Of a stretch of DNA of 24,000 nucleotides, positions 4,661-23,746 are shown piece after piece. The notes beneath the pieces are model-generated. The model saw only the letters and a program-made list of their open reading frames with translations, did not search any database and was not told the origin of the DNA. Within the stretch, counting starts at the first letter, position 1. Each line of letters starts with the position of its first letter. The translations under genes and the position numbers were made by a program. The stretch is from Candidatus Saccharimonadales bacterium (GTDB taxonomy: Bacteria > Patescibacteriota > Saccharimonadia > Saccharimonadales > CAIOMD01): contig JBBRSL010000006.1 of NCBI GenBank assembly GCA_038245435.1, positions 1-24,000 of the forward strand, in the 5' to 3' direction.

Positions 4661-5740
4661 ATGTCCCAATTTACACTTACTGCGCTGCGCCTGCGTCAAT
4701 TTAGGTCTTATAACGAATACGCCATTGAGCTTTCTACCGGGGTTAATATTGTAGTTGGGCCAAATGCTAGTGGTAAAACAAATCTACTTGAATCGATACT
4801 ACTCATAACTGGATCACCTTCGTTTCGCGCCCAATTTACGCATGTCATAGAGCAAGGTACTGAATGGGCTCGCATTGATGGTGAATCTGGTGATAAAAAA
4901 AGAACACTAAAAATTGAACAAAATCAGCAGCTCACAAAACGAACCTACGAACTTGATGGCTTAACAAAGCACCGCTTGAGTTATACAGATACCATACCAG
5001 TAGTAGTATTCGAACCCGAGCATATGAGGCTACTCACAGGCTCTCCTGAGCTGCGTCGCTCGTTTTTCGACACAATACTCGCAGAGCTTCATCCTGTATA
5101 CCAAAAGGACCTTACAGCCTATAAGCGGACGTTGGCCCAGCGCAACCGATTACTTAAAACAAAACCAGCGAGCTTAGAACAACAATTATTTGCCTGGAAT
5201 GTACGCTTATCGCAGCTTGCGGGGCTTCTTGTAGGCCGTCGACTCGAACTTATAACAGATATAAACAAGCAACTAGCAAGTATTTATAGCGAGATTGCTC
5301 AAAAACCAACCGATTGTGCGCTCGCCTATCAAACGCCGCTTAATATCGATAACTACGAAACAAGCATGTTAAAGAAGCTAGAAGCAGATATTGAAAAAGA
5401 TATTCTACGTGGCTTTACTGGCGCTGGCCCCCACCGTGAAGATTTCACCGTGCAAATTCGCGGCCAACAAGCCGACATTACTGCATCGCGCGGCGAAACG
5501 CGCACGCTCGTATTGGCGCTTAAATTATTAGAGTTACAATTTCTAGAGCAAGCTCGGGGTAGTAAACCGCTATTACTACTCGATGATGTCTTTAGTGAAC
5601 TGGATGGTTCGCGCCGCAAAGCACTCACTCGCTACCTTCAAAACTACCAAACTATCATCACAACAACTGACGCCGATGTCGTTGTGAAAGATTTTTCTCA
5701 GCAAGCAAACGTCATTGCGCTTAGTTACCTTCAAAACTAG
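4661..5740 (+). CDS. recF: DNA replication and repair protein RecF
   Basis: 359 aa. It has Walker A GPNASGKTNLLE, an ABC-like signature region and Walker B LLLLDDVFSELD. Its position after dnaN supports the call. Confidence 0.9.
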   Translation: MSQFTLTALRLRQFRSYNEYAIELSTGVNIVVGPNASGKTNLLESILLITGSPSFRAQFTHVIEQGTEWARIDGESGDKKRTLKIEQNQQLTKRTYELDGLTKHRLSYTDTIPVVVFEPEHMRLLTGSPELRRSFFDTILAELHPVYQKDLTAYKRTLAQRNRLLKTKPASLEQQLFAWNVRLSQLAGLLVGRRLELITDINKQLASIYSEIAQKPTDCALAYQTPLNIDNYETSMLKKLEADIEKDILRGFTGAGPHREDFTVQIRGQQADITASRGETRTLVLALKLLELQFLEQARGSKPLLLLDDVFSELDGSRRKALTRYLQNYQTIITTTDADVVVKDFSQQANVIALSYLQN

Positions 5741-6191
5741 GGCCAGCAAGGAGTGATTGGTATTGCTGATAGGTTTGGAGTGGATTTTTTTCGCCACTTG
5801 CGGTAACTTGTATCCATAAATTTTGTTGGTGCTGAACAGTAATAACTATATTTTCATTATTCGCCTGTACTATAAATTTATAAGTGTAGACATCATTGTC
5901 AGAGGTACTGCCGACGGGCTTATTTGCTGTGTTTGCTTCTGGATTTTGAGTAGGGTTAGTGAAATATTTTTTTAAATAAGTATCAACAACTGTATTAATA
6001 AGTTTCTGTTCTTCTATATCTGTTGTTACTGCACTTAGGCTCTTTACGGTTGCCGATTGAAGGATTAATTCAGCCTCGTTTGGTGGTATATATACAAGCT
6101 TTCCCGAATCGGCGTTATTATTTGAAATTAATATAAATAGACCAAAGCTTATAACTATTAAAATAATGAGTGGTGTGTATTTATTTCGCAT
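5721..6191 (-). CDS. Hypothetical bitopic membrane protein, last gene of the T4SS-like operon
   Basis: 156 aa with an N-terminal TM helix (PLIILIVISFGLFILI). The remaining ~125 aa look like a helix followed by a beta-rich ectodomain, which could be VirB8/TcpC-like NTF2. That fold assignment is a guess. Its ATG at 6191 overlaps the upstream gene's stop by 11 nt, and its stop overlaps the recF 3' end by 20 nt. Confidence 0.55.
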   Translation of the reverse strand: MRNKYTPLIILIVISFGLFILISNNNADSGKLVYIPPNEAELILQSATVKSLSAVTTDIEEQKLINTVVDTYLKKYFTNPTQNPEANTANKPVGSTSDNDVYTYKFIVQANNENIVITVQHQQNLWIQVTASGEKNPLQTYQQYQSLLAGPSFEGN

Positions 6192-7608
6192 TTTTTACCG
6201 CCACAAAATATTGACCATGACTAATAAAATCACTTAAATCATAGTACCGGTCTTTTGGACTATTGTCTTCTGGGTCTGCTACTAAAACCTTATCATTTGA
6301 ATCAATTGAACGAAGTACAATGATGTGGCTATCAAATCTATACGGCCCACCTCCACCGCCACTAATAACCATTGCGCCAGCATTAAGTGCATCGCGAATT
6401 GCGGCTTTATTGTTCGCGAGCCGTTCGTACGGCAGGCCGAATTTAGTTGACCCCCATTTTGCCATTGTCTCACCCCGATATCCTGCAATTGAAACGTTTT
6501 CAGTAAAGCTATCTTTAGCGAGTGACTTTGGAGTAATTGCCGTATCTTTTTTAAATGTTGCCGCGATCATCGAATACGATGTTAGGCCGCAACCAGCGCT
6601 ATCGATATCGCTTCCACCGGAACCGTTATAGGTATCACTTCCCCACTTAGAGTCGTTTTGGCTGTAGAATACAAAATCACCGTTCGTTGGCTGGGTTGCA
6701 TCGCTTGCTGCGCATGTTGAGCCAGCTGCAGCTTGCGTGGTTGAGCCCGTTGCACTACTTGATACGCTCATACTTTTATATGTTAGTAAATCTTTTCGGT
6801 AGATTCCCTCTCTTTGCTCAAGTGCAGAAGTTCCAATAACAATACCGCCATATGCCGGGTAATTTTTACTGACTTGCTCAACAAGCGCTAGTCGGCTCTG
6901 GTAGTATTTTTTATCATTTGGCGGCAAAGAAGCGGTTGCCCACATGAGGTTGCCTTTATAGGTACTGTAGTACGTTAAAGTGTACATAAAATTTTGCGCG
7001 GTAGATGCCGGGTCGCCTAGTACAGCACCGATTCTGGTTTGGTTACCCGTAAAGAACTGGCGAGCATATAACTCGACACCTGTATCAAAACTATCATAGC
7101 CTCGGCGCCCGTCAGACCCTGAACCACCCCAAACAGAACCACTCTGCCCTATCCAGCTTGGGCTCATACCGCCGTTCATAGGGTTGAATAAGCTACTGTT
7201 GGCTATGTCGCCGCCTTCGCCAATTGCAAAAGTAACAAGTGCAAGGACATGCTCTTGAGTTACGAAATCGGATTCTGGCTTGCCGCTAATTTGTGCCATG
7301 CGCTTAAGAATACCAATCATGAACTGCTCCAAAATATACGGTGAAGTGAGCCCGCTCTTGTATTTACCCTGAATATTTTTTATTTCGGCTGCAGTATATG
7401 TTGCGCCTCCATCACCAGGACATTTATTAAGGACTCCATCATTATAGAAATAAACCCCAGCTTTATACTCGCGAACCTGTTCTGCAGACTGAGCAAAAAT
7501 CGTGCCATTAATAGATATGGCCACTACAAGCGTTACGAACAACCAACCAAGATTACGTAGCTTAATCAAGAGATATGCTCCCTGCCGCGCTAGTATAGGC
7601 AGCCGCAA
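6181..7608 (-). CDS. Membrane-anchored or secreted protein with a C-terminal papain-like (C39-like/CHAP/NlpC-P60 superfamily) cysteine peptidase domain; putative cell-wall hydrolase
   Basis: 475 aa with an N-terminal hydrophobic anchor (WLFVTLVVAISINGTIFA). A Ser/Thr/Ala linker precedes FYSQNDSKWG...DSAGCGLTSYSMIA, which holds the candidate nucleophile Cys. A later DSHIIVLRS...VLVADP holds the candidate His/Asp. The N-terminal ~250-aa domain is unassigned. The start is uncertain, since TTG at 7569 would reduce the 47-nt overlap with the upstream gene. Confidence 0.6.
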   Translation of the reverse strand: MRLPILARQGAYLLIKLRNLGWLFVTLVVAISINGTIFAQSAEQVREYKAGVYFYNDGVLNKCPGDGGATYTAAEIKNIQGKYKSGLTSPYILEQFMIGILKRMAQISGKPESDFVTQEHVLALVTFAIGEGGDIANSSLFNPMNGGMSPSWIGQSGSVWGGSGSDGRRGYDSFDTGVELYARQFFTGNQTRIGAVLGDPASTAQNFMYTLTYYSTYKGNLMWATASLPPNDKKYYQSRLALVEQVSKNYPAYGGIVIGTSALEQREGIYRKDLLTYKSMSVSSSATGSTTQAAAGSTCAASDATQPTNGDFVFYSQNDSKWGSDTYNGSGGSDIDSAGCGLTSYSMIAATFKKDTAITPKSLAKDSFTENVSIAGYRGETMAKWGSTKFGLPYERLANNKAAIRDALNAGAMVISGGGGGPYRFDSHIIVLRSIDSNDKVLVADPEDNSPKDRYYDLSDFISHGQYFVAVKNAK

Positions 7609-8137
7609 TGGAATCTGGAAGTACTGCTATATCGTCGCTCAAGGTATCGTTGCTTGGGATAATCTTTCGTATTTGCCACTCACCATACACATATTGAATC
7701 GCCGCTACGTAATATGCGCCACCATCAGTGGTTCTAAAAGTACCAACATACCAACTACCGTTTTCTAAAAACTCACCAGAAGTTACGGTATAGTCTTTGG
7801 CGTCGCTTGGTGCATTACGGGCATTCACAAAAGTGTCAAATGGTTTTATGGGATCTAGTTGGATCGTTACTGGTACGAACGGTAGTGAGTATATTTTTTT
7901 CTGATATGGTGCGGTATCTTTTGTAATGACTCGTACGCTATAGATTCCCGGGCGTAGCTTAAGTTCTTTTGTATCTGAGAAGCGATTATTATTTATGTAA
8001 AATGTAGCAGTATCTTTATTGGTGCTAATGGTGCTGAATCCAAATAAAAGATAGACCACCAAAAATACATTTAATACTAAAAAGAATATAACCCAAGTTC
8101 GTATTTGTTTTAAGGTATTCGGAATTAAAATATTCAT
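7562..8137 (-). CDS. Hypothetical bitopic membrane protein (beta-rich ectodomain, possibly PEGA-like)
   Basis: 191 aa with an N-terminal TM helix (WVIFFLVLNVFLVVYLLFGF). The segment FYINNNRFSDTKELKLRPGIYSVRVITKDTAPYQKKI resembles a PEGA-type beta-sandwich. It starts 3 nt after the upstream stop. Confidence 0.55.
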   Translation of the reverse strand: MNILIPNTLKQIRTWVIFFLVLNVFLVVYLLFGFSTISTNKDTATFYINNNRFSDTKELKLRPGIYSVRVITKDTAPYQKKIYSLPFVPVTIQLDPIKPFDTFVNARNAPSDAKDYTVTSGEFLENGSWYVGTFRTTDGGAYYVAAIQYVYGEWQIRKIIPSNDTLSDDIAVLPDSIAAAYTSAAGSISLD

Positions 8138-8140
8138 TTG

Positions 8141-11100
8141 TTATGCCTTTGCCGGTTGTGCTGAACATTGCATATAATCTTTGCCGCCATTTACATATGT
8201 AAGTGGATTCAGTATTTTTCCAAGACCCATTTGGCTGTATTCAAAGACGTTAGGATCGGTTGTAATGCCGAAGTGGAGGTGAGGCGCGGTAGCTCCAACA
8301 GAGCCTGTTTTGCCGATTACATCACCTTTTTTCACTGATTGCCCCGGCGTTACAGATATTGAACTTAAATGTTCATAGACTGAGTAAAGGGCGTCGCTGT
8401 GCTTGATTTTTATAATACCAAAGTTGCCTCCAACATTGCCGTACACGGTTCCGTCGGCAATTGCTATTACGGGCAAAGGAGTCCTTGCGCGTAAATCTAA
8501 ACCAGGATGTAGCCCCTTGCTCAGTGGCTGGGCAAAGCAAGAGTTTATAGTGATTGTTCCATTAAGTGGCCACACCCAGCCTTGAGTTGCGGGTACTCCC
8601 GCTGCTGTACCGATATTATTAAATGCAGCATATAGTTCGGGCTGTATGTTTATGAACCCGAGAGCCTTGCATAAATCAGGTGTTTCGCGGGCACATGCTC
8701 CACGGAAGTCGTTTTTACGGTCGGTCGCATCTATGTGGAGGTGTGCAATACCGTCACCCTGCGCAGCACCACCAGACGTAGCAATGATTTGTCCCGACGT
8801 TACTTTATCACCTTCTTTTACTTTTTGACTGTTAGGCTGCAAATGACCATACCAAAATACAGTTCCCTTGCCAATACAAGTGAGCTTGGTACCAGTATCG
8901 TCGCAGTCATTCGCTTTAATAGTTATGAGCGCTTCTGTTGCGCTACCGGCTTTATTTGGTGAACTAGGCTTTACGTTTACAACAACTCCATCAGTGGCAG
9001 AGACGACTGGGACACCGGCTTTTACAAAGATATCCGAAGCATAATAGCCGTAACTTTCGGTACCATGACAAGTAACGTCTTGAGTCTTGTAGCACCAAGC
9101 AGGCTTATTGCTTGTTATGGTATCTTTATTAACTTGTAGCGGAAATATAAAAGGGCCAAACCGACTAGCCGTTGGAGACGTAGTTGAGCCATCAGAACTG
9201 CTATCTGAACCTCCCACCTGGTCGTTGCAATAACCGTTATCTAGGAAGTCATTAGTGCATTCTATAATACCTGTATCAAGTCTAAAAGCGCGGAAGCGTT
9301 CATGAAGACCAATCCGCACCGTTGGAGTATTGCTGGCCGCTGTTGCTTTTTGGGAGAATAATTTGCTAAAGAAACTTACCGTACTTGTGTTGCTATTGGC
9401 CGGATTTGCAACATACCCAGTTGTGGTACCAGCGTCGAAACATTCTGATGTGAATTCACTTACGTAGTCACCTTCGCTAAATAAAACACTGACTTTATCG
9501 CCTTGGGTACCATCTTCGTCGTTAAAACAAAACTTTGTATAGTCGGCAAAAACGCCAAGTGGCTTACCGTCACCGTCAACATAGCCGTTATCTTGCATCC
9601 AAATCATGTTTTCTATCGGGTCTATTTTATCGAGCTCATCATCTGTGTTGCCCATAATTGGGTTACAAAAACCATCGGTTTGAATATTGTTAGCTACAAT
9701 GTCTTCATCGGTACAAGCTGGGGTTTCTTGGCTTGCGGCTTTTGCGTTCAAATTACCAAAACTAAACAGTGATTTTGGAATACTAGCAATCGTGCCAATA
9801 ATGCCCTTATTTTGTATCATAGCCACACCACTCATACTTTTATAAGCAACGGAGTTTTGGTTTTCGCTACTTAAGATTTTTTCTTTTAAGGGTAGCGCAT
9901 TAAATTGAGTGGCCTGGTAAGCGAGATATTCTTGTTTTTGAGCGGTAAATTGGCTTTTTGTGAGTGGTTTAAAGCCGCGTGAACTAGCATTTAAGGCTGT
10001 CATTGTACCAGCACCAGATGAAAAGGCATCGCCCATGCGCTCACCTTTTTCTGCGCCACTTACAATGGTGCCAGTTGCCGCTTTTACGCCAAGCTGTGTG
10101 GCGTAGCCAATAATAAACTGTTTGCCGAGTTCAATTGCGGCTTGTGCTGGAAGTTTAGCGGCCGCTTCTGCACCACCGGTAAAGATGGCGGCACCAATAC
10201 CAAGAACCCCACTCCCTACCTGGATAAATGGGTTATTAAGGGTACCGCAAGTTGTTTTTACATTGCTTTTACCGCCAACAAGCCCATAGAACTTATCTAA
10301 AATATTTTTAATTTCACCGCTTGTGCCACCACTTGAATTATACGTAGTAGTGTAGGCGCCCGTTACCTGTTTATGGGTACTTAATGTTTGCCAACCAGCC
10401 GATGCAAAGAAGCTTTTACCTGTTTCTGGGTCGGGCTTATTCATTGCTGTCATCATCTCGTTGAGTGATTTACTATCAACCTTACCTGCTTTAAGGCCAT
10501 CAGCCATAGATAATATTAAAGAGGAATACTTAGCGAGTTGGAGTGCTTTTTGGACTCTCGAAACTTTCGATATAGTGTTAGCCGCCGAGATGCCTTGGCA
10601 GGCTCCATCAATTGGGCCGGTGATTTTTATAACATTGAGGATGCCTTCTGCAAAAGCCTTACCGGGCTTAATTGCCAAATCCGGTGATTGTGGATTACCG
10701 GCCAGTGGTGCTGTTTCTGTACCACTATTAGCAGCTGCATACTCCTCTTGAGCGGCGGCATCAATCCCATCTGCTAGTTCGCCGGCAGCAGTATTTGCTT
10801 TTTGACCTGCTGGATCGGCCGTACCATCCTGTTTTTTATCGGGCACTGGGTCTACTTGGCCGTTTGCGAGCACTGGCTTGTTCATAGTATCGCGTATTTT
10901 TTGTTTTAATCGTTCTTCGGCGCTCGCCAGCTTACGGGTGGCAGCGTTATCTGACCACCATTTTCCGCGTACTAGCCCGTAGCGAGCATACATCTTTGAA
11001 GTTTGCTTGCTTCGCCACAGTGCCGTTTTTGCCGGGTACACGTCATTCATGGCTGTTCTGAGCGCAGAGCGTCGCTGCCATAGACTATCGCCGTCATTAA

Positions 11101-11761: not shown

Positions 11762-11765
11762 GAAA

Positions 11766-11790
11766 TTACCCCTGTTGTTTTCAGGGGTAA
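11766..11790 (-). promoter_or_regulatory. Perfect 9-bp inverted repeat (RNA hairpin) covering the SD of the M23 gene; an extended -10 lies immediately upstream
   Basis: The minus strand reads TGGTATAAT (plus coordinates 11790-11798). It is followed by TTACCCCTG-AAAACAA-CAGGGGTAA (11790 down to 11766), then TTTCG, then GTG at 11761. The 3' arm contains the AGGGG SD-like element. Confidence 0.45.
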
Positions 11791-11843
11791 TTATACCATT
11801 TTAGTTATGCTAATTAAAATAAAAAGAGCGTATTTTCAAAATA

Positions 11844-13745: not shown

Positions 13746-13808
13746 TATTTTTTACCCCTGGCAAAAACTGGACGCTGGAAAACGCCGAAAGGTAAGCACT
13801 TCGTGACT

Positions 13809-13842
13809 AATCCAGCGTCTAGAATCCAGCGTCTAGAATCCA
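13809..13842. repeat. Tandem 14-bp direct repeat (2.4 copies) with an inverted partner at 13771-13779
   Basis: AATCCAGCGTCTAG occurs at 13809-13822 and 13823-13836, with a partial copy AATCCA at 13837-13842. GACGCTGGA at 13771-13779 is the reverse complement of the TCCAGCGTC core present in both copies. Confidence 0.9.
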
Positions 13843-14715: not shown

Positions 14716-14756
14716 TAAACGTTTGGTGTATCGCGTTTTGGCGATACGGTTCCACC

Positions 14757-15860
14757 CTAGTGCTGAATGCGAATCTCGCCCTCGTTCTGGTTAGCTTTTA
14801 TCTTATTTTTGGCCATTCCAGAAATCGTGTCGAGCTTTAAATCTCGCGCATTCTTTGCAAGTTCTATATTAACAGGGTTTGGCGGGGGTGTCACCGCTTG
14901 TGCTTTAGCAGCTTCTGCTTTTTGTTGTTCTGCGGCCTCTATAACTAGTTCTTCGGGCGTTTTAATTGTTTTGTGGTGAGGGTTTCGGTTTTGAGTTGCG
15001 ACTAGTTTATCGTGGTGAATTTTGTCGAGGAGTGCTTGCTCTACTGTGTCAATTGGTTTTTGTGTTTCGTCTAAGTAGCTTTCGGCCGTAGTCGGCTGTG
15101 CAGGTGTAACTATAGGGTCAGCAGCAAACACTGTTTGCCCGGTAGCTACCGGTATACCGGGCTTTGTGATAAATGAGTAGTCAACTGGTGCTTGTTGAGT
15201 GCTTGCGCTGCGGGCTGCTTGCATACGAGCTATAGCAGCATCTTTTTGTGCTTGGCCACTTGCTTGCACCATTTGCTCAAAGTGTTGAGCTGTTGGATTG
15301 TTCGCTGCATCTAAAATATCATCTGCGGCTGTTATGGCTATGTCGGGGACCGATTGCGGCATACTTGTCGGATCTACGAGCCTATCGCTCGAAAAGCTAT
15401 CATATGCAGGCACAGTCGCAAGATTAACATTGGCCTGCTTAATCGCCCAACCACGGCTGTCTATGGTATCTGCGAGTGCATTAAGCCTATTGCGAACCTC
15501 TTGTTGTGTGAGACCATCAGTATAAATGTGCTCGAGCTTTTTTGGTACGGTAATAGTCACAAGTTCTTTGAGGCCGGACTGATCCCAGATACGTTTGCGT
15601 GGTTTTAAAAAGAATCGTATTTGCGCTGCCAGCCAAATTTCGGTTGGTTGGTCGCGCCCTAGCGGTGCCGCTAAAATTGCCGGCACTAATATAAATGGAA
15701 TAAATGGTATAGCGGCATAAATGGTTGTTTTGCTAGCAACTAAAAAAGCCAAAAACGTGAGACCTGCCGCAGTACCAGCAAAAATAAACTGCTTTAAGCT
15801 GAGCGGCCCAAAAAGCTTATCGTCTGCTTCTATATCTTGTATTACTTTATATGTGCCCAC
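14757..15860 (-). CDS. PrgI-family/VirB3-like T4SS membrane protein with a long A/Q-rich C-terminal extension
   Basis: 367 aa, with GTG start at 15860 sharing one base with the upstream TAG (TAGTG). The N-terminus MGTYKVIQDIEADDKLFGPLSLKQFIFAGTAAGLTFLAFLV plus a second TM helix (IPFIPFILVPAILAAPL) matches the PrgI-family pattern. Confidence 0.6.
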   Translation of the reverse strand: MGTYKVIQDIEADDKLFGPLSLKQFIFAGTAAGLTFLAFLVASKTTIYAAIPFIPFILVPAILAAPLGRDQPTEIWLAAQIRFFLKPRKRIWDQSGLKELVTITVPKKLEHIYTDGLTQQEVRNRLNALADTIDSRGWAIKQANVNLATVPAYDSFSSDRLVDPTSMPQSVPDIAITAADDILDAANNPTAQHFEQMVQASGQAQKDAAIARMQAARSASTQQAPVDYSFITKPGIPVATGQTVFAADPIVTPAQPTTAESYLDETQKPIDTVEQALLDKIHHDKLVATQNRNPHHKTIKTPEELVIEAAEQQKAEAAKAQAVTPPPNPVNIELAKNARDLKLDTISGMAKNKIKANQNEGEIRIQH

Positions 15861-18682
15861 TACATGTATTCATTATTTGGATTACTAGATGTTCCTGAAG
15901 GGCTTGGTCCTGATCCAGCTCCAGGCCCAGAAACCGGAGGTGTCGAAGTTTGAGCCGGCACTGCAGTGAACACGCTTGTTTTTGTTATTGGATCAAACGT
16001 ATGTTGTAATTGCAATGCTCCGTCGCTTGATAATACTTGCTTTACTGCAGGGTGACCCATATCTTTAAGGCCAGAGATAACTTCTGGTGGAATGCCTGCT
16101 TGTTGGGCAGTCTTGCTAATGCTATTAAGCTGAACCAAGTAGTTATCGAGCTGTTCTTTGTTGCTTGTTGCCAGTGCTTGTTCAATATCTTGCACATATG
16201 CACCTTTTGTTACACTGCCATCATTATTTTTCTTAATTTGAAACCTGCCCTTTTCGACAGTGCTAAAAGCAGTAGGGCTAAGTTGATGCGACCCTTTGAT
16301 TCTCTTGCCACTAGCTGTAACAAGTTTGTCGGGTGTAAGGCCATTAATCTCGGCGTAGTTCTCATCTTGCAGTAGTTGCCATGTATCCATGTCTGTTGAT
16401 TGCAAATGCTGTGCAACCCTATCTGCGTTAGCTGCCTGCTTTTGTTTAAGTAGCTGTGAATGTGCAATGGCTTGCGCATAGTGGTCTGGCTGGTAAACTT
16501 GCCCATTTTTGCCCGTTACTTCCAGCCCCATTGCGATAGTTTCTAACTGGTTGAACTTATCCTCACCATATAGGCCATTAATAGCATTGCCGACGAGTTG
16601 TTGAGCCTCATCATGTTGTAGTTTCTTACCCTGTGAGACGGCAAGCTCTGTTCTTCGACTGTAGGCAGACTTTGTTGTTGGTAGGATTGCGCCACCCATC
16701 GTATTGGTCCGCCATCTATCAAGAGGCGTGCCTTTTCCAGCTCCGATTCTGTTATAAGCATTTCGATTCTTTTCTTCAGTAACAGCTTTTCGCGAGGCAT
16801 CGCGTTTTTCTCTGAGGCCAAACATTTTGCCACCCTTCATCTTTGAGCCTGCACCGTTAAGTGCGCCGGTAATGCTACCAAATATGCCACCCGCAAACTT
16901 AAAAGTTGCGGGAATCAAAAACAGTGGAGCAAAGTACGCGATAATCACTAAGACTATTTTAAGACCCCCTTCAGCGGTTGAGCTGCTGCTGCCTTTCGCC
17001 GTAATCGCCGCGAATATTTGTCCAGCCGCAAAAAGTAATGCAATGAGCGGGAACATAATAAGTAACTTGCTAAATAGCTGCCACCACGAGTTCCAAAACT
17101 TTTGAGTGTTTGGCAGAATCCATGCGACAAGCGCAATTGGCGCAAGTATAAGGAGCGCAATAATAAGAAGTTTTCGTATTATGAGTGTTAGGATTACGGC
17201 TGCTACCGAAATAATGACACCGATTGCCACAAGCGCAATTGTCATAAAGAATCCACCCGATAAGACGGTGCCCACCACGAATGCTGTTCCACCAATAACG
17301 AGCCCACTACCAGTAAATATAGTTGCGGCCCCGATGTCTTTAGAGGATTGAGAGTTGACGATATCAACGATATCGCCGCCTCCATTTGCCTGGAAAGGAG
17401 CGGTAATAAGCCAGTTTAGACCGTAGCCAAGTGCGTTGAATAGCTCAATCATTGTAGTAAATATAAACCAAGAAAGCTGAATAAGAATCACGGCTATAAC
17501 AAGGCGTGGCAACACTTTTTTTACGGTGTACGCATCAACAAAACTAAAGTTAAATATTTGGCTCGCGATCATAAAGAGTGCTACTAAAACTAAGAGTGTA
17601 TTTGCGACACCGCGGACCGCCGCCCAAGATGCTTGCAAGCCATTAGAAGAACTGCTGGTTAATTCTGGTATGGCCAATAAGCTAAATACTGAACTTCGAA
17701 GGAATCCATAAATTCCATCGGCAAGATCAAGCATTGGGCAAAGTATCCACCCAAAAACAGAAATACCGCTATAGCAGCCATCGTTAGTATTCGTTGTGCT
17801 ACTGCTGCTTGTTGTAGTTGCACCTACGGCAGATGTATCAAGGCCAAGTATGGATGTGTAGGCAATAGCTAAATCTTTATTTTTAAGTTTGTCAGAAAGT
17901 TCTTGGCAATCTGCTTTTCCGGCGCCTTGTGTGCCAATACCATAGCCAACAGATATTATTACTCCTTTACCCTGCTCGCCTTTAAATATGTAATCTTTTA
18001 TATCGCCGTTCTGTTGCACAGTAAATATTCTGTAGGTGTTGTCGTCGGTATTTGCTTGATTGATTTCGTTTTGCGTGGCGCCTTCTGGTGCTGCAGGGCC
18101 TATAGGCTTGAATGGTGTAGCTTTACAGCCAGTCACAAAGTTTTGGTAAAAAATGTAATACAAAAGTGCACTATCGGCCGAGCTGCGGTTTGTAGTAAAG
18201 AACATACGTGCAGGTATTGCTGCCCTGAGCTTATCTGCGCTGTAGGATTTTTGTACATAATTGTCGCCATTTAGCTCGTAGCCGATATTTTTTAGAAAGT
18301 TCGCAGTATCGCCGCCCGTCCAATTTTGTTCAACGAGTTTAAAAGCTTGGTTACATGGCACAACGCCCTTTTCGGGGGCTGCAACTGTACCTACACTTAC
18401 ATCCGACTCGCTTGACACTTTACCGTCGTTCACGTCTTGCGTGCTAATTGTCTGTTTAAACCGACATTGGTCTTCGGCAAAAGCGCTTAAAATCGACCAC
18501 GAAATAGCTCTGTCAGCAATGGGCGCAAGCTCTGCACTCGTTTTTGGAGTTATGGTACCACCACCAGTTACGGGTGCGGTTACTGCAAAAACCACACCGC
18601 CAACACTATTAAAGGCAAATATAAATAAAGCTGCCAGGAGGGCAAATGACTTAATTTTGCTAAATATTCTTTTTTTTTCCAC
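15860..18682 (-). CDS. VirB6/TrbL/TcpH-like polytopic T4SS membrane protein with a large N-terminal ectodomain and C-terminal cytoplasmic domain
   Basis: 940 aa, starting at GTG 18682. A signal or anchor segment (FALLAALFIFAFNSVGGVVFA) is followed by a ~270-aa Cys-containing ectodomain. A block of about 7-8 hydrophobic helices spans roughly aa 320-610. A ~330-aa hydrophilic C-terminal domain ends in a Ser/Pro/Gly tail. The architecture and its operon position with VirB4 fit VirB6-like proteins of Gram-positive T4SS. Confidence 0.65.
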   Translation of the reverse strand: MEKKRIFSKIKSFALLAALFIFAFNSVGGVVFAVTAPVTGGGTITPKTSAELAPIADRAISWSILSAFAEDQCRFKQTISTQDVNDGKVSSESDVSVGTVAAPEKGVVPCNQAFKLVEQNWTGGDTANFLKNIGYELNGDNYVQKSYSADKLRAAIPARMFFTTNRSSADSALLYYIFYQNFVTGCKATPFKPIGPAAPEGATQNEINQANTDDNTYRIFTVQQNGDIKDYIFKGEQGKGVIISVGYGIGTQGAGKADCQELSDKLKNKDLAIAYTSILGLDTSAVGATTTSSSSTTNTNDGCYSGISVFGWILCPMLDLADGIYGFLRSSVFSLLAIPELTSSSSNGLQASWAAVRGVANTLLVLVALFMIASQIFNFSFVDAYTVKKVLPRLVIAVILIQLSWFIFTTMIELFNALGYGLNWLITAPFQANGGGDIVDIVNSQSSKDIGAATIFTGSGLVIGGTAFVVGTVLSGGFFMTIALVAIGVIISVAAVILTLIIRKLLIIALLILAPIALVAWILPNTQKFWNSWWQLFSKLLIMFPLIALLFAAGQIFAAITAKGSSSSTAEGGLKIVLVIIAYFAPLFLIPATFKFAGGIFGSITGALNGAGSKMKGGKMFGLREKRDASRKAVTEEKNRNAYNRIGAGKGTPLDRWRTNTMGGAILPTTKSAYSRRTELAVSQGKKLQHDEAQQLVGNAINGLYGEDKFNQLETIAMGLEVTGKNGQVYQPDHYAQAIAHSQLLKQKQAANADRVAQHLQSTDMDTWQLLQDENYAEINGLTPDKLVTASGKRIKGSHQLSPTAFSTVEKGRFQIKKNNDGSVTKGAYVQDIEQALATSNKEQLDNYLVQLNSISKTAQQAGIPPEVISGLKDMGHPAVKQVLSSDGALQLQHTFDPITKTSVFTAVPAQTSTPPVSGPGAGSGPSPSGTSSNPNNEYM

Positions 18683-18784
18683 GTGAAATTTTATTTAAAC
18701 TCTTATGTATTACTTTACCATAGTAACTACTGAAGTTTAATAAGCTAAAATTGCAGCAATTGATATTTTTTAAAAAAGTTTTGT

Positions 18785-18793
18785 TGCTATAAT
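18785..18793 (+). promoter_or_regulatory. Candidate extended -10 promoter of the pilin operon
   Basis: TGcTATAAT at 18785-18793 lies in the AT-rich divergent region between the VirB6-like gene and the first pilin gene. There is no good -35 at 17-nt spacing. Confidence 0.4.
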
Positions 18794-18810
18794 GTTTGAA
18801 AGAAGCAAAT

Positions 18811-19194
18811 ATGAAAATAATTCAAAGAGTACTACTAACATTGATTGCCGTTACGGCCCTACTCGTGCCTTCAGTTCCTGCTTTTGCTGCAGGTACGGCA
18901 ATACCTGCGCCTACAACGGGTGAATTCCAGTGCACGGGTGACTTGCAAACATGCACCAAAAAAAACCCAATAATTCAGTGGGTTAATTTTTTTGTTAATG
19001 CCCTTGCGGTGATAATTTTTGTCGGTGCTACTGCAATGATGGTTTTTGCAGGTATTCAATATATTACTGCTGCAGATAACGCTCAAAAGATTCAGGATTC
19101 GAAGAAACGCATAACAAATGTAATTGTCGGCCTAATTGCGTTCTTTTTTCTGTATGCATTTATGCAATGGTTGATTCCCGGGGGAGTATTTTAA
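18811..19194 (+). CDS. T4SS pilin-like protein (VirB2/TrbC-type architecture), paralogue 1 (divergent)
   Basis: The ATG at 18811 (MKIIQRVLLTLIAVTALLVPSVPAFA/AGT) is preferred over the ORF-track TTG at 18796. A signal peptide is followed by a Cys pair (FQCTGDLQTCTK), a TM helix, FAGIQYITAADNAQKIQDSKKRITNVIVGLIAFFFL and a second TM helix. Confidence 0.7.
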   Translation: MKIIQRVLLTLIAVTALLVPSVPAFAAGTAIPAPTTGEFQCTGDLQTCTKKNPIIQWVNFFVNALAVIIFVGATAMMVFAGIQYITAADNAQKIQDSKKRITNVIVGLIAFFFLYAFMQWLIPGGVF

Positions 19195-19970
19195 TGGTAG
19201 TAATCATTAAAAAAACTATTCTTCTTTTGGGCCTTATTATTGTTTTTACAGGTGTGGCTAGCCCGCTTGCATTTGCAGCTTCTGGGGCAGCCCAGCCAAC
19301 TTCGCTAAACACTACGAGTACTGCCCCTACGCTCGTAGCGGCTTCAGGGTCAACGACATGCACAAAAAGCTTTTTGGGGTTCCCCACATGGTACAAATAT
19401 CTACCAATTGGCCCCGCACCACAGTGCACGATTATTACGAAGGATATTGGTGGTCAAGTTGCGGTACTAATATTAATGGCGGTAATAGAAATAATGCTTT
19501 CAGCTGCCGGAATTATAGCCGTAGGCTTTGTAATATTTGGTGCTTTTAAATTTATAACGTCACAAGCAGATCCTCAAAAAATAGCTGGTGCTCGTACAAC
19601 TATCGCAAATGCACTCGTCGGCTTAGTAGTTGCACTCGTTGCATCAAGAGTTATTGCCTTTATTGGTAACAAGCTATCTGCATCTGCAACTAATACTGCA
19701 GTAAATAACGGCGCATTAGATGGCGCGAATATTCCGCAAGTGACTGCTAACACGGCCCAAGTACAAGATTTGCTAAGCTTCGTATTCGTACTTGCTGGCG
19801 CCATAGCTTTGCTTGTAATTACCATTGCAGGATTTAACTTTGTGACATCACAGGGCGAACCGCAAAAGGTCGCAAAAGCTCGAATGACGATATTGTATGC
19901 AGTTGTTGGACTCGTAGTAGCCATATTTGCGTTTGTAATTGTAAAATTTATTGTAGGCAATATAGGATGA
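19194..19970 (+). CDS. Tandem (double-domain) T4SS pilin-like protein, paralogue 2
   Basis: The ATG at 19194 overlaps the upstream stop (TAATG), with GGGGAG 8 nt upstream. It is preferred over the track start at 19167. The signal peptide reads MVVIIKKTILLLGLIIVFTGVASPLAFA/AS, and there is a Cys pair (TTCTK...PQCTI). Two pilin modules follow: FGAFKFITSQADPQKIAGARTTIANALVGLVVALVA and AGFNFVTSQGEPQKVAKARMTILYAVVGLVVAIFA. Confidence 0.75.
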   Translation: MVVIIKKTILLLGLIIVFTGVASPLAFAASGAAQPTSLNTTSTAPTLVAASGSTTCTKSFLGFPTWYKYLPIGPAPQCTIITKDIGGQVAVLILMAVIEIMLSAAGIIAVGFVIFGAFKFITSQADPQKIAGARTTIANALVGLVVALVASRVIAFIGNKLSASATNTAVNNGALDGANIPQVTANTAQVQDLLSFVFVLAGAIALLVITIAGFNFVTSQGEPQKVAKARMTILYAVVGLVVAIFAFVIVKFIVGNIG

Positions 19971-20368
19971 GACTCTTGAGATACCTCTTGCTGATGCCAG
20001 CATTATTTTTAGTTCTGCTTTTTCCCGTAACGACCTTTGCGAGTACGCAGAGTGAAGTTACGGCCGCTTGTGCAACTGCAGCAAAGAATGACGGTGAAAT
20101 GCCTTCATATTGCCAAACCACGGGCACAACTAAGGATCCTTTAACGGGCCCAGACGGCACGCTTACAAAGATTACTAATATTGTAGGTTTTGTTGCAGGA
20201 GCAGTAGCCGTTATTATGATCATAATTGGTGGTTTTAGATTTGTTATAAGCCGTGGTGATTCCGCAAAAGTTGTTACTGCGAGGCAAACAATTCTGTACT
20301 CAGTGGTTGGTCTTATCGTTATTGTTTTTGCGCGCACAATAGTAATATTTGTTCTGAGTAGAATATAG
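19967..20368 (+). CDS. T4SS pilin-like protein, paralogue 3
   Basis: 133 aa, with an ATGA overlap onto the upstream gene. The signal peptide ends ...FPVTTFA/STQ. There is a Cys pair (AACATAAKNDGEMPSYCQ), then GGFRFVISRGDSAKVVTARQTILYSVVGLIVIVFA. Confidence 0.8.
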   Translation: MRLLRYLLLMPALFLVLLFPVTTFASTQSEVTAACATAAKNDGEMPSYCQTTGTTKDPLTGPDGTLTKITNIVGFVAGAVAVIMIIIGGFRFVISRGDSAKVVTARQTILYSVVGLIVIVFARTIVIFVLSRI

Positions 20369-20378
20369 AGGAGTAAGA

Positions 20379-20828
20379 ATGATTTCTAAAAGTAAAAAAT
20401 TAATACTAGCAACAATAACAAGTCTGCTGTTGTTTGGTGGATTTTCTGTTGCCTTAACACCTTTAGTATTCGCAGCGCCTGCCCCTGAACCTGCGGCTAC
20501 CACGACTTCCGCTACTACCAATTCTGCTGCAGACCAGGTGTGCCAAGGTTTAAGCCAGGCAGATGGATCAACTGGTTGTGACTCAAAAGGTACTGGTAAG
20601 ACAGCAACGAGCCTCATAAATACCATCATCAACTTATTTTCTTGGGCTATCGGTGTTATCGCCGTAATTATGATTATATTTGGCGGTTTTAAGTTTGTGG
20701 CGAGTACTGGTGATAGCGGTAAGGTGGCGTCTGCTCGTTCGACTATAATCTATGCGCTTATTGGTTTAGTTGTTGTGGCGCTTGCACAAACAATAGTAAA
20801 ATTTGTGCTGGGGCAGTTTATTAAATAA
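20379..20828 (+). CDS. T4SS pilin-like protein, paralogue 4
   Basis: 149 aa, with SD AGAGGAG at 20367-20373. The signal peptide ends ...ALTPLVFA/AP. There is a Cys pair (QVCQGLSQADGSTGCDS), then GGFKFVASTGDSGKVASARSTIIYALIGLVVVALAQTIVKFVLG. Confidence 0.85.
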   Translation: MISKSKKLILATITSLLLFGGFSVALTPLVFAAPAPEPAATTTSATTNSAADQVCQGLSQADGSTGCDSKGTGKTATSLINTIINLFSWAIGVIAVIMIIFGGFKFVASTGDSGKVASARSTIIYALIGLVVVALAQTIVKFVLGQFIK

Positions 20829-20859
20829 TTTCATTAGCTGTTTTGTTTAGGGCAATCTA

Positions 20860-20888
20860 TTGCAAGCTTGCCCCAGTGGTGATATAAG
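20860..20888 (+). promoter_or_regulatory. Candidate internal sigma70-type promoter for the last pilin gene
   Basis: TTGCAA at 20860-20865, a 17-nt spacer, then extended -10 TGaTATAAG at 20880-20888. This lies about 30 nt upstream of the ATG at 20918. It overlaps a 10-bp palindrome GCAAGCTTGC at 20862-20871. Confidence 0.45.
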
Positions 20889-20917
20889 ATAAGTAACAAA
20901 AGTAACTAAAAGGAATA

Positions 20918-21355
20918 ATGTACATGAAAAAACTTAAGTTCTTAATTACGATGATTTTCGCTATGAGCCTTAGCTTGGTGCCGGCTACTTTGCTTGCTGG
21001 TTCTGCTATGGCCGCAACTTCGATTCAAGACTCTACTTGTCAGGGCGCATCTCTAGAGGCCCCAAGTGGTTCTAACACGGGTGCTTGTAATACTAATAAC
21101 GCTGATTCGGCAACTAACGTTACAAAAATTGTGACCCTTGCAGTCAATATCTTTTCATGGGTCATTGGTGTTGTTGCGGTGTTCGCAATCATCTACGGTG
21201 GCTTTAAGTACATTACATCTGCTGGCGAATCAGGCGGCGTAACCTCTGCAAAGAACACAATTTTGTACGCCATTATCGGCCTCGTAATTGTCGCCCTTGC
21301 GCAGGTAATCGTTAAGTTCGTACTTGGCAACGTTACGGGTAGCGTTTCAAACTAG
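20918..21355 (+). CDS. T4SS pilin-like protein, paralogue 5 (candidate major subunit)
   Basis: 145 aa. The start could instead be ATG at 20924. The signal peptide ends ...LLAGSAMA/AT. There is a Cys pair (STCQGASLEAPSGSNTGACNT), then GGFKYITSAGESGGVTSAKNTILYAIIGLVIVALAQVIVKFVLG. It has its own candidate promoter upstream and a strong terminator downstream. Confidence 0.85.
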   Translation: MYMKKLKFLITMIFAMSLSLVPATLLAGSAMAATSIQDSTCQGASLEAPSGSNTGACNTNNADSATNVTKIVTLAVNIFSWVIGVVAVFAIIYGGFKYITSAGESGGVTSAKNTILYAIIGLVIVALAQVIVKFVLGNVTGSVSN

Positions 21356-21380
21356 TAAGTATTTCAAAACTAGCTAACTT

Positions 21381-21405
21381 CCCCGCTCCGGCGGGGATTT
21401 TTATT
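21381..21405 (+). terminator. Rho-independent terminator of the pilin operon
   Basis: CCCCGC (21381-21386), loop TCCG, GCGGGG (21391-21396), followed by ATTTTTATTTATT. Confidence 0.8.
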
Positions 21406-22403: not shown

Positions 22404-22496
22404 GGAGGGGTACCCAAGTGGCTGAAGGGGATGGTTTGCTAAATCATTAGTGGGGAGCAATCTCCAGCGAGGGTTCGAATCCCTCCTCCTCCGCCA
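22404..22496 (+). tRNA. tRNA-Ser (anticodon GCU), class II with long variable arm, CCA encoded
   Basis: Hand-folded. The acceptor stem is GGAGGGG/CTCCTCC with one G-T pair. The D arm is CCC..GGG. The anticodon stem is ATGGT/ATCAT with loop TTGCTAA. The long variable arm is GTGGGGAGCAATCTCCAGC. The T arm is GAGGG-TTCGAAT-CCCTC, with discriminator G and then CCA. Confidence 0.9.
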
Positions 22497-22502
22497 AACA
22501 AA

Positions 22503-22533
22503 GAAAGTTCTGCCGTAAGGTAGGACTTTTTTG
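22503..22533 (+). terminator. Rho-independent terminator-like hairpin after tRNA-Ser(GCU)
   Basis: GTTCTGCC (22507-22514), loop GTAA, GGTAGGAC (22519-22526). The stem is 8 bp including two G-T pairs, followed by TTTTTT. Confidence 0.55.
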
Positions 22534-22595
22534 TTTCTGTTAGCCCTAGTTTTTAAATATTTTTGGAAGCTTGACCGAGCTGTATAATTACTGAT

Positions 22596-23703: not shown

Positions 23704-23746
23704 TTTGATGACATAACAAACCATAAGAGTGATACAATATTGGCAA

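Follow-up and report, generated by a model that had tools for sequence, protein, structure and literature searches.

[quoted passage not shown] Quiñonero-Coronel 2025 (PMC12102498) described MPF-FATA-like loci with TrsD, PrgI, VirB6 and VirB2 arrays, no relaxase and a position near dnaA; McLean 2020 is among the earlier published descriptions that support the same interpretation, and a 2026 preprint reports tubular structures at a parasite-host interface that may be T4SS pili. The interpretation of the present locus is correct but already in print (PMC7427843, PMC10633639, PMC12102498, PMC12857230), and points added here are marked as such below.

The window analysed is a stretch of 24,000 nucleotides, in which 13 ORFs in two divergent units occupy positions 5721-21405, directly 3' of dnaA-dnaN-recF (Table 1). 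All are present where the initial annotation had placed them, and the identities of dnaA, dnaN and recF were confirmed by Pfam and NCBIfam profile searches; rpmH, rnpA and yidC lie beyond them on the far side, and DnaA-box-like clusters lie at 1679-1804 and 3304-3449. GC content is flat across the window, with no compositional break, as had been noted. The tightly linked gene junctions TAGTG, TAATG and ATGA and an 11-nt overlap are each seen in the sequence; the 47-nt overlap also reported between the C39-like gene and g191 hinges on the TTG start of the longest ORF. With an alternative TTG, at 7569, the overlap shrinks to 8 nt and the signal anchor looks more normal; the gene of a close relative is 448 aa long. 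A product of about 462 aa, starting at 7569, is probable. Past the pilins, at a distance of 1-2 kb, are two tRNA-Ser genes and a LAGLIDADG ORF; the 3' end shared by the two tRNA-Ser genes is the only meaningful repeat in the window.

Table 1. Positions and strands of the features of the locus within the window
Feature	Position	Strand
g156, small bitopic protein	5721-6191	-
C39-like protein, 475 aa by longest ORF	6181-7608	-
g191, small bitopic protein	7562-8137	-
Double-M23 protein, 1206 aa	8141-11761	-
VirB4 ATPase, 633 aa	11844-13745	-
TrsD-like protein, 290 aa	13843-14715	-
PrgI/VirB3-like protein, 367 aa	14757-15860	-
Extended VirB6-like polytopic membrane protein, 940 aa	15860-18682	-
Divergent intergenic control region, VirB6 / pil1	18683-18810	
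Five pilin genes	18796-21355	+
pil1	18811-19194	+
pil2, two-module fusion	19194-19970	+
pil3	19967-20368	+
pil4	20379-20828	+
pil5	20918-21355	+
Intrinsic-terminator-like hairpin	21380-21397	+

The motor of the system is encoded in two pieces. The 633-aa protein scores 360.9 bits against conju_CD1110 (NCBIfam cut-off 325), covering model positions 179-735 of 752, and also matches Pfam P-loop_TraG (1.4e-30), AAA_10, DUF87 and the VirB4 C-terminal domain of PDB 4AG5 (3.5e-48). Its Walker B motif, ILAIDE, was found by motif scan; its Walker A motif, AKSGAGKS, was read by eye, a strict G-first pattern scan having given no match. Profiles and motifs together identify it as a VirB4 ATPase of the monoderm CD1110 family, as annotated. 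It is without the initial ~180-220 residues of full-length VirB4 proteins, its residues 34-610 aligning only with PrgJ 221-796 (2e-47). The neighbouring 290-aa protein, which bears a P/Q-rich N-terminal tail of ~55 aa, matches TrsD (NCBIfam, 3.4e-6), the N-terminus of conju_CD1110 (model positions 11-119, 1.3e-4) and VirB4_CagE (18-170, 2.5e-4), all below curated cut-offs. A homologue on a Pontibacillus plasmid is found at 3.2e-31, that of a close relative carries a precomputed PF26593 (TraC-like) assignment, and the family is highly conserved among related loci (median identity 69%, 87 invariant columns); hhalign of the family against the single PrgJ sequence gave no match. These similarities support the annotated VirB4-N-domain-like protein, a free-standing counterpart of the VirB4 N-terminal domain that takes the place of the part absent from the 633-aa motor.

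Two proteins are candidates for the membrane platform on which this motor would dock. The PrgI/VirB3-like assignment stands: Pfam PrgI is matched over residues 5-91 with 41.2 bits (gathering score 27; 2.4e-10), two N-terminal transmembrane (TM) helices are followed by a C-terminal extension of ~270 aa without family match, and of 80 related loci, 73 encode the protein, with a median identity of 45%. Its GTG start and the VirB6 stop overlap (TAGTG). In the 940-aa protein, an N-terminal TM or signal segment precedes an ectodomain of ~300 aa that contains Cys; about six further TM helices (352-597) lead to a C-terminal, hydrophilic domain of ~340 aa. It finds no sequence match in Pfam, NCBIfam or the PDB (the 290-aa, 191-aa and 156-aa proteins are likewise without a direct Pfam match), and the VirB6/TcpH-like label is less secure than the initial annotation suggested. 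The family profile (A1) matches a 753-aa protein of an Embleya plasmid (hhalign probability 97.2%, E 2.8e-11), which itself, with 26.1 bits, narrowly misses the TrbL_4 gathering score of 27, and more weakly Tn916 Orf15 (76.7%); the homologue in a close relative (L081) has PF19590 (TrbL_3) as a precomputed assignment, and the gene lies directly upstream of the PrgI gene, as does prgH of pCF10. This weaker, transitive evidence suggests a VirB6-like protein.

Each of the five pilin genes scores above the gathering threshold of T4SS_pilin, which upholds the five VirB2/TrbC-like pilins of the initial annotation as genes but not as modules: pil2 contains two matching stretches, and its halves match separate 174-aa and 101-aa genes of a related locus (L001), so that it is a fusion of two pilins, a point added here, and the five genes hold six modules. 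Of 52 related loci, 38 have six pilin ORFs, which is the modal count. TrbC is matched weakly, and the Mbov_0395 pilin-like model gives 34.9 bits against an NCBIfam cut-off of 40. Each pilin has a signal peptide and a hydrophobic hairpin of two helices, as well as a variable region that contains two Cys. The ATG at 18811 is probably the start of pil1, and an extended -10-like TGCTATAAT can be read just 5' of it, at 18785-18793; as a consensus promoter scan across the locus did no better than chance (32 found, 32.1 expected), this element is only a lead. The hairpin that closes the pilin unit (7-bp stem, 6 GC pairs, then a T-run) lies 25 nt past the pil5 stop and precedes a convergent hsp20 gene. 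VirB2, VirB3, VirB4 and VirB6 plus hydrolases are what pilus biogenesis needs, and the divergence of the six modules, like the rapid evolution of extracellular parts, points to recognition at the surface under diversifying pressure; a pilus serving adhesion or host recognition only, with nothing transported through it, is nevertheless improbable, for two type IV pili already cover adhesion and motility in Saccharibacteria (PMC11623550) and the essentiality of every component, hydrolases included, would be hard to explain.

Between virB4 and recF lie the annotated double-M23 and Cys-peptidase hydrolases and the two small bitopic proteins, each of the four with a single predicted N-terminal membrane anchor. 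In the 1206-aa protein, a single TM helix (97-129) separates a cytoplasmic tail of ~95 aa from the ectodomain, which comprises a conserved module of ~650 aa without family match and, C-terminally, two M23 domains (Pfam Peptidase_M23 twice, 1.3e-31, with matches to M23 enzymes in the PDB), the second with canonical HPGLD and HLH, the first without a canonical HxxxD. Its N-terminal module is common to all 44 positional homologues (jackhmmer, E <= 6e-34) and recurs in 444 cluster representatives (E <= 0.001), while the C-terminal 320 aa vary (VanY, M23, GDSL, GDPD, M14, EEP, M74). The C39-like protein ends in a papain-like Cys peptidase domain (Peptidase_C39_2, residues 311-446, 1.2e-6, 29.5 bits against 24), with no family match for its N-terminal domain (about residues 40-300) and none of the whole protein to PDB sequences; in homologues the Cys-peptidase domain is paired with N-terminal Phage_lysozyme2, Amidase_3 or Amidase_2. 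Two points are added here from comparison of homologues: the ~1000-aa protein 3' of virB4 joins a conserved N-terminal module to an interchangeable C-terminal enzyme domain, and the entire virB4-recF interval is a hypervariable hydrolase cassette.

This arrangement, a conserved carrier module with swappable enzyme domains beside virB4, resembles polymorphic effectors. Non-peptidoglycan activities (GDSL lipase, GDPD, EEP) occur in some species, and by analogy with the bacteria-killing T4SS of Xanthomonas and the Ptl system, proteins, possibly the variable hydrolases themselves, might be injected into or onto the host bacterium; effector delivery has been proposed by McLean 2020 and Wang 2023. 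Such export is somewhat less likely than not here, however: no coupling protein is present for recruiting cytoplasmic substrates, the variable proteins with their N-terminal TM anchors look Sec-inserted rather than T4SS-translocated, and most of their domains are peptidoglycan peptidases, which plain VirB1-like wall remodelling would fit as well.

The two bitopic proteins are near-orphans, another point added here. g191 has only 4 close homologues among 5.8 billion proteins; its AF2 model (pLDDT 75.7, built from a 4-sequence alignment) predicts an N-terminal TM helix, a PEGA/transthyretin-like beta-sandwich and a four-stranded sheet with a helix. Foldseek returned nothing at E <= 0.001 in the PDB, the top match being the transthyretin-like domain of carboxypeptidase D (E 0.038, 79 columns), and PEGA-domain proteins are seen at similar positions in 6 related proteins and, in S. 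epibionticum, as SEML1_0005. g156 ends the minus-strand operon; it shares 11 nt with the C39 gene and, at its other end, 20 nt with the convergent recF. It has only 3 homologues among the same 5.8 billion, all at the same position in close relatives, and gave no hit in 80 related loci, also by profile search; its low-confidence model (pLDDT 53.4) predicts a four-stranded sheet and one helix after the N-terminal TM helix, with no significant fold match. No VirB8 fold was demonstrated in either AF2 model by Foldseek.

Pfam and NCBIfam searches of the locus matched no VirB7-, VirB9- or VirB10-like domain; together with the CD1110 VirB4, PrgI, the TrsD-like protein, the VirB2-like pilins and the anchored hydrolases, this agrees with the monoderm type proposed initially, and the locus falls within the Patescibacteria clade of MPF-FATA-like monoderm systems. 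VirB4 relatives occur in at least 588 species; the 80 best matches, at 81-91% identity, come without exception from Saccharibacteria, and the annotation's guess at the source lineage is right. The gene order (hsp20, pilins, VirB6, PrgI, TrsD, VirB4, variable region, recF, dnaN, dnaA, rnpA) is the same in dozens of Saccharimonadales species, and the locus is therefore a core locus rather than an integrative conjugative element, as first suggested. The absence of mobility genes also extends beyond what had been noted: searches of the window, and of 1.5 Mb around virB4 in 83 related loci, turned up no homologue of a relaxase, coupling protein (T4CP) or integrase, and the window has no att-like or flanking direct repeats. 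T4CP and relaxase lie within about 10 kb of virB4 on pCF10 and on a C. perfringens plasmid, and directly adjoin it on an Embleya plasmid, whereas neither is near virB4 here; a T4CP could be encoded elsewhere in this genome, by analogy with S. epibionticum, whose T4CP is distant from the T4SS locus and non-essential.

An ordinary integrative conjugative element or a decayed plasmid transfer module, near oriC by chance, would account for a VirB4 of a conjugation-associated family, for nearest plasmid relatives that are conjugative or conjugation-like, and for the nearby tRNA-Ser genes and LAGLIDADG ORF. It is largely refuted, and scarcely credible, given the lack of mobility genes and repeats, the flat GC content and the identical recF and hsp20 flanks in dozens of species; moreover, VirB4 has a median identity of 83%, above that of DnaA between the same genomes, the remaining point added here, unlike a decaying mobile element.

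The gene set is sufficient for pilus biogenesis and not for conjugative DNA export, which, with no coupling ATPase or relaxase, argues for a pilus-like conduit as the primary product. Component identities, architecture, the lack of mobility genes and synteny are results of the present analysis, and essentiality comes from published work on a relative; pilus formation, transport direction and cargo are what we infer: the split VirB4 would dock on the PrgI/VirB3-like and extended VirB6-like platform, which would extract Sec-inserted VirB2-like pilins from the membrane and polymerise them into an extracellular tube; the anchored M23 and Cys peptidases would open the peptidoglycan for its passage, and g191 and g156 may be accessory factors on the wall or periplasm side. 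A ComB- or Ced-like machine taking up nucleic acids or nutrients for an auxotrophic epibiont is a tentative possibility. ComB, which serves DNA uptake in H. pylori, is one of the T4SSs without T4CP, the organism is without nucleotide biosynthesis, ComEC competence is dispensable in S. epibionticum (PMC11665869), and the 2026 preprint ties host-RNA feeding to the putative T4SS pili; the similarity of VirB4 to CedB and CedD, however, is weak (50.8 bits against an NCBIfam cut-off of 700), and no gene for DNA binding or processing lies in the locus. Import has a slight edge over effector export. Taken jointly, the locus is very probably the vertically inherited, origin-proximal T4SS of a Saccharimonadales bacterium (Patescibacteria), whose pilus-like conduit at the epibiont-host interface would give the epibiont access to host material.

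The whole interpretation of the locus next to the replication origin is already published; the initial annotation had picked out a real feature and read it correctly and with care, but what it describes is a known system. McLean et al. [quoted passage not shown] Wang et al. [quoted passage not shown] In Quiñonero-Coronel et al. 2025 (PMC12102498), a Patescibacteria VirB4 clade is placed next to MPF-FATA; the catalogue there comprises TrsD, PrgI, VirB6 and VirB1-like proteins together with VirB2 arrays, each of 2-11 genes, relaxases are almost absent, and closeness to dnaA, dnaN, rnpA and rpmH is reported. The window itself yields a parts list and a topology, lacks genes for DNA processing and shows that the locus is inherited vertically; essentiality for epibiotic growth was established elsewhere and is known only in a relative, S. 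epibionticum ML1, by Tn-seq (PMC10633639).

The rnpA/rpmH/dnaA/dnaN/recF stretch is a replication-origin region with the canonical neighborhood; DnaA-box-like clusters occupy two of its spacers, and one-mismatch DnaA-box matches number 12 versus 5.7 expected. The secretion locus follows as two divergent units. Among its gene junctions, TAGTG, TAATG, ATGA and an 11-nt overlap are all present in the sequence as annotated initially, while the 47-nt overlap exists only with the longest-ORF TTG start of the Cys-peptidase gene; starting from the TTG at 7569 instead shortens the overlap to 8 nt, and the gene of the closest relative encodes 448 aa. A promoter/terminator scan of the locus returned counts equal to chance expectation, its only leads being the hairpin that follows the last pilin gene, pil5, and one extended -10. 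Past the locus, an ORF of 332 aa that combines an HTH with a LAGLIDADG_3 domain is lodged between tRNA-Ser(GCU) and tRNA-Ser(UGA), running into the start of the second tRNA gene with its final 22 nt; the 3' ends of the two tRNA-Ser genes form a 32-nt direct repeat (94%). Because a homologue occurs in only 1 of 80 related loci, this ORF is a candidate for the insertion of a free-standing homing endonuclease.

Features of the origin region, the secretion locus and its downstream flank
Feature	Position	Strand	Remark
yidC-like gene, partial	within 1-1553	-	origin neighborhood
rnpA	1007-1348	-
rpmH	1416-1553	-
DnaA-box-like cluster	1679-1804		rpmH-dnaA spacer
dnaA	1899-3287	+
DnaA-box-like cluster	3304-3449		dnaA-dnaN spacer
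dnaN		+
recF		+
Minus-strand unit	5721-18682	-	eight genes, directly after recF
virB4-recF interval	5721-11761		hypervariable
g156	5721-6191	-	small bitopic protein
C39-like protein	6181-7608	-	475 aa
g191	7562-8137	-	small bitopic protein
Double-M23 protein	8141-11761	-	1206 aa
First M23 domain	8700-9000	-	residues ~925-1018
VirB4	11844-13745	-	633 aa
TrsD-like protein	13843-14715	-	290 aa
PrgI-like protein	14757-15860	-	367 aa
VirB6-like protein		-	940 aa
Divergent pilin unit	18796-21355	+	five genes
pil2	19194-19970	+	267 aa by longest ORF
GC-rich hairpin and T-run	21380-21397	+	closes the pilin unit before convergent hsp20
Region of the HTH/LAGLIDADG_3 ORF and two tRNA-Ser genes	22404-23662
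P/Q-rich ORF	23740-24000	+	extends past the 3' end of the window

VirB4 scores 360.9 bits against conju_CD1110, a monoderm VirB4 family with an NCBI curated cut-off of 325, and also matches P-loop_TraG, AAA_10 and DUF87 in Pfam, other VirB4/TraC models and PDB 4AG5, the solved VirB4 C-terminal domain (3.5e-48). Its Walker A motif reads AKSGAGKS and a motif search located Walker B as ILAIDE; a strict, G-first Walker A pattern search on VirB4 gave no match. A VirB4-family ATPase with both Walker motifs intact thus places the locus among VirB4-based type IV secretion systems. The alignment to conju_CD1110 covers only model positions 179-735 of 752, and the stretch of the pCF10 VirB4, PrgJ, that aligns with the window protein is residues 221-796. 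The missing N-terminal part may be encoded by the neighboring gene: the TrsD-like protein, for which the local Pfam library gave no match, scores below the curated cut-offs against NCBIfam TrsD (3.4e-6) and against the N-terminal stretch of two VirB4 models (1.3e-4 and 2.5e-4), and a precomputed Pfam match, "TraC-like", is available for its counterpart in a close relative. Aligning the TrsD-like profile by hhalign to the single sequence of PrgJ, a full-length VirB4, was negative. The truncation of VirB4 is complementary to these weak, sub-cut-off matches, and the arrangement is kept in 78 of 80 loci; taken together, the N-terminal matches and the shortened ATPase support a predicted split of VirB4 into a TrsD-like N-domain protein and a truncated VirB4. 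The TrsD-like protein also bears a P/Q-rich, low-complexity N-terminal tail.

The PrgI-like protein, encoded one gene upstream of virB4, reaches 41.2 bits against Pfam PrgI (gathering score 27) and has two transmembrane helices, as expected of the VirB3-like PrgI of an MPF-FATA-like T4SS; beyond this, some ~270 C-terminal aa extend the protein and match no family. Assignment of the 940-aa protein as VirB6-like is the weakest of all and depends on transitive links. This protein has no Pfam, NCBIfam or PDB sequence match, the PDB having been searched with a 29-member profile, and only 2 of the 29 homologues match TrbL, at 0.007. In hhalign the family reaches a probability of 97.2% with a TrbL_4-like protein of an Embleya plasmid, 76.7% with Tn916 Orf15 and 0.1% with PrgH, and the homologue of a relative has a precomputed TrbL_3 match. 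The original VirB6/TcpH-like call, a tentative one, is carried by a topology that fits an extended VirB6, by gene position and by these indirect alignments, while a direct profile match is absent.

All five genes of the divergent unit exceed the T4SS_pilin gathering score, pil2 matching twice, which gives six modules; their TrbC Pfam matches fall below the gathering score. A signal peptide, a hydrophobic helical hairpin and a variable region in which Cys occurs exactly twice are present in each pilin. The sequence architecture is that of VirB2/TrbC pilins, a signal peptide followed by two hydrophobic helices with a short basic loop, from which pilus assembly is predicted. The array beside the core genes is divergent, the other modules sharing 17-24% identity with pil1. 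In related loci the modal number of pilin ORFs is six, and pil2 corresponds to the separate second (174-aa) and third (101-aa) genes of the six-gene array of relatives; in its sequence the two genes are fused, either by a genuine gene fusion or through a stop codon lost in the assembly. A December 2025 preprint (bioRxiv 10.64898/2025.12.18.695078) describes VirB2-like pilins, for example PrgF, in Gram-positive conjugative T4SSs, and the pilins of the window are therefore no longer an anomaly.

A species scan with one genome each returned at least 588 loci with a VirB4 relative; the best 80 of these, used for comparison, all come from Saccharibacteria/Saccharimonadales metagenome-assembled genomes and have 81-91% identity. 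In nearly every sufficiently long locus the order is hsp20, pilin array, VirB6-like, PrgI, TrsD, VirB4, a variable stretch of 4.5-8.5 kb, recF, dnaN, dnaA and rnpA. Across the 26 loci carrying all markers, median identity to the window proteins is 83% for VirB4, 73% for Hsp20, 70% for DnaA, 69% for TrsD, 61% for DnaN, 49% for RecF, ~46% for the pilins, 45% for PrgI and ~32%, over partial coverage, for the VirB6-like protein; the hydrolases are detected in only 8-18 of the 80 loci. Choosing loci by VirB4 similarity biases these identities slightly, but the 13-point gap between VirB4 and DnaA is too large to be explained in this way, and VirB4 is conserved above DnaA. Strong conservation of VirB4 and TrsD is consistent with essentiality and is not a test of it.

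The alternative to a chromosomal core apparatus is an integrative conjugative element. Profile searches found no relaxase domain in any window ORF scanned; phmmer searches with three relaxases, with three T4CPs (the VirD4/TcpA-type coupling ATPase) and with a tyrosine integrase had no match in the window or in 83 related loci (1.5 Mb); a repeat search of the window gave no att-like flanking direct repeats; and GC content runs flat at ~39-49% along the window, with no break. By comparison, a T4CP and a relaxase lie within ~10 kb of virB4 in pCF10, a C. perfringens plasmid and the Embleya plasmid, directly adjoining it in the last. Since conjugative relatives keep these genes near virB4, whereas the searches found none in the window or the 83 related loci, and since the flanks are conserved across species, the reading as an integrative element is rejected. 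Distant, non-essential T4CP homologues are reported for some Patescibacteria (PMC12102498). Profile searches of all 13 products likewise found no Pfam or NCBIfam family of a VirB7/VirB9/VirB10 outer-membrane core, which agrees with the monoderm-type system proposed at the outset.

The wall-facing side of the locus includes N-terminally anchored peptidoglycan hydrolases encoded next to virB4, with M23 domains twice and C39_2 once, in the place of a VirB1 analogue such as PrgK, TraG, TcpG or CwlT. The 1206-aa protein has one transmembrane helix and two C-terminal M23 domains (Pfam, with PDB M23 matches); the second has the canonical HPGLD and HLH motifs, and the first retains HLH, lacks the canonical HxxxD zinc-ligand motif and may be degenerate, LytM-like and non-catalytic. 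The 475-aa protein joins an N-terminal anchor to a papain-like C39_2 domain, and its N-terminal domain has no family or PDB match. Positional homologues of the hydrolases bear domains of the lysozyme, SLT, CHAP, amidase and NlpC/P60 types, and homologues of the C39-like protein pair the Cys peptidase with lysozyme or amidase domains.

The gene that follows virB4 specifies a protein of ~800-1600 aa in every case, and in all of the 44 species examined the N-terminal parts (without the last 320 aa) are homologous (jackhmmer, E <= 6e-34). This N-terminal module of ~650 aa has conserved Cys residues and no family match; an exhaustive search of representatives traced it to 444 cluster representatives, the similarity stopping near query residue 750. 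The last 320 aa of the positional homologues tell another story, with VanY in 10, M23 in 4, GDSL lipase in 2, GDPD in 1, M14 in 1, EEP in 1-2, M74 in 1 and no recognized domain in about half; an independent sample of 49 representatives has 10 M23, 10 VanY and single M14, Amidase_2, M74, CHAP and NlpC/P60 domains. Relatives that share 48-54% identity with the protein of the window already lack the M23 pair. This large protein consists of a conserved N-terminal carrier module and an interchangeable C-terminal enzyme domain. Among the 95 proteins of the remaining interval genes, Phage_lysozyme2 occurs 24 times, GDSL 10, SLT 9, M23 7, C39_2 6 and PEGA 6, alongside glucosaminidase, CHAP, amidase, GH3 and NlpC/P60 domains. 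In the window and 40+ related loci, the virB4-recF interval is a hypervariable set of wall- or envelope-degrading domains at a fixed chromosomal position between conserved virB4 and recF flanks. Neither this variability nor the carrier/variable-domain architecture of the ~1000-aa protein is described in the available portion of PMC12102498.

The two small bitopic proteins of the interval, g156 and g191, are near-orphans, either extremely fast-evolving or lineage-restricted accessory proteins. Only 3 homologues of g156 and 4 of g191 are detectable among 5.8 billion clustered proteins, those that can be placed on a contig all lying at the same position in close relatives, and neither protein is detected in any of the 80 related loci. 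The AF2 model of g191 (pLDDT 75.7) has a PEGA/transthyretin-like beta-sandwich and a small alpha/beta unit; the fold search against the PDB gave no match at E <= 0.001, the VirB8-like OrfG appearing only at probability 0.06. The g156 model is of low confidence (pLDDT 53) and its fold search uninformative. Homologue searches, AF2 models and fold searches therefore yielded no VirB8-like (NTF2-fold) assignment for either protein, and phmmer with PrgL and PrgD had no match in the window or the 83 related loci.

In terms of known systems, the closest is that of ML1 and TM7x, which occupies the same position, with dnaA-dnaN-recF directly ahead of it and hsp20 and tRNA-Ser behind (PMC10633639, PMC7427843); synteny with SEML1_0001-0022 was established against the published gene table. 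ML1 shares the order of small exported proteins, lysozyme/Cys-peptidase, large peptidase, VirB4, TrsD-like, PrgI and VirB6-like proteins, followed by six divergent pilins, and neither locus contains a relaxase or coupling protein. ML1 differs in having two VirB6-like genes (0011 and 0013) where the window has one, a TAT-signal NTF2-like gene (0012) of its own, a PEGA-like protein after the hydrolases instead of between them, a DD-peptidase fold in place of the two M23 domains at the end of the large protein, and no pilin fusion; between species, the extracellular components have no recognizable sequence likeness. With the Patescibacteria-clade T4SS of PMC12102498 the window shares an MPF-FATA-related VirB4, TrsD/PrgI/VirB6 by virB4, VirB2-like pilin arrays, lack of a relaxase and proximity to dnaA, dnaN, rnpA and rpmH, with no essential difference.

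The MPF-FATA prototype is the conjugative Prg/Pcf T4SS of pCF10 from Enterococcus faecalis: its order prgF/G (small membrane proteins), prgH (VirB6), prgI (VirB3), prgJ (VirB4), prgK (multi-domain wall hydrolase) and prgL (bitopic) is mirrored, and its VirB4 is 25% identical over 612 residues. A full-length VirB4 (796 aa), the T4CP PcfC, the relaxase PcfG, adhesins and the VirB8-like PrgL are found in pCF10, whereas in the window VirB4 is split and there are six pilin modules, no T4CP or relaxase and no detectable homologue of PrgL or PrgD. A look-alike locus sits on a Bacillota megaplasmid, the 898-kb plasmid of Pontibacillus sp. ALD_SL1 (NZ_CP062975, 351.8-361.4 kb; L084, the extracted locus, 7483-17036), beside flagellar genes and with no relaxase or T4CP annotated within 12 kb; two T4SS_pilin genes, a TrbL-like protein of 779 aa, a PrgI/TraL-like protein, TrsD (3.2e-31), a short VirB4 (36% identity, 3.5e-126) and a hydrolase (1050 aa, NlpC/P60+M23) follow in shared order, the pilins being co-directional with the core genes, unlike those of the window. 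The plasmid of the actinomycete Embleya sp. NBC_00896 (NZ_CP108778) carries a pilin ORF (7577-8104 in its extracted locus, L086; T4SS_pilin 3.3e-20) that is missing from the PLSDB gene table, then TrbL_4-like, PrgI and VirB4 genes; a T4CP and a replication-relaxation protein come straight after virB4, and the locus looks conjugative. This pilin ORF agrees with the recent claim of VirB2-like pilins in Gram-positive T4SSs. Both loci belong to non-Patescibacteria monoderms and are plasmid-borne, and the Saccharibacterial carrier module is undetected in their hydrolases; its profile had no match among the Pontibacillus, Embleya, Miltoncostaea, C. perfringens and pCF10 proteins.

As a mechanism, the TrsD-plus-VirB4 motor would sit on the PrgI/VirB6 platform, extract Sec-inserted pilins and build a tube; the anchored hydrolases would open the wall and the tube would form an epibiont-host conduit. 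With no coupling protein, the gene set would be enough for pilus biogenesis and not for classical substrate recruitment, and we infer that its primary function is that of a "pilus-conduit builder". In a review of 2025 and a perspective of 2024 the T4SS is described as having an unknown function, with delivery of effectors or import of host molecules among the ideas raised; a 2026 preprint reports tubular structures at the parasite-host interface that may be T4SS pili. Of the two putative directions of transport, uptake of host material is slightly favored over effector export.

Among T4SSs, that of Saccharibacteria was the first to be reported as essential for its carrier bacterium; the window is one more well-preserved example, of comparative value. 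A near-invariant motor (VirB4 and TrsD) stands against wall-facing parts that change domain content between species, namely the hydrolases, the small bitopic proteins, the variable regions of the pilins and the VirB6 ectodomain. Enzyme domains are swapped on the carrier and its neighbors reshuffle lysozyme, amidase, Cys-peptidase and lipase domains, whereas the cytoplasmic motor is steadier than DnaA. That the virB4-recF interval serves as a "breaching cassette" matched to the host, and not as a housekeeping VirB1 analogue, is a tentative and rather doubtful reading; if true, the variable enzymes would act on the host envelope at the pilus contact and help to set host range. The contrast between motor and wall-facing parts points to the components most likely to decide host specificity and to a carrier module of unassigned fold.
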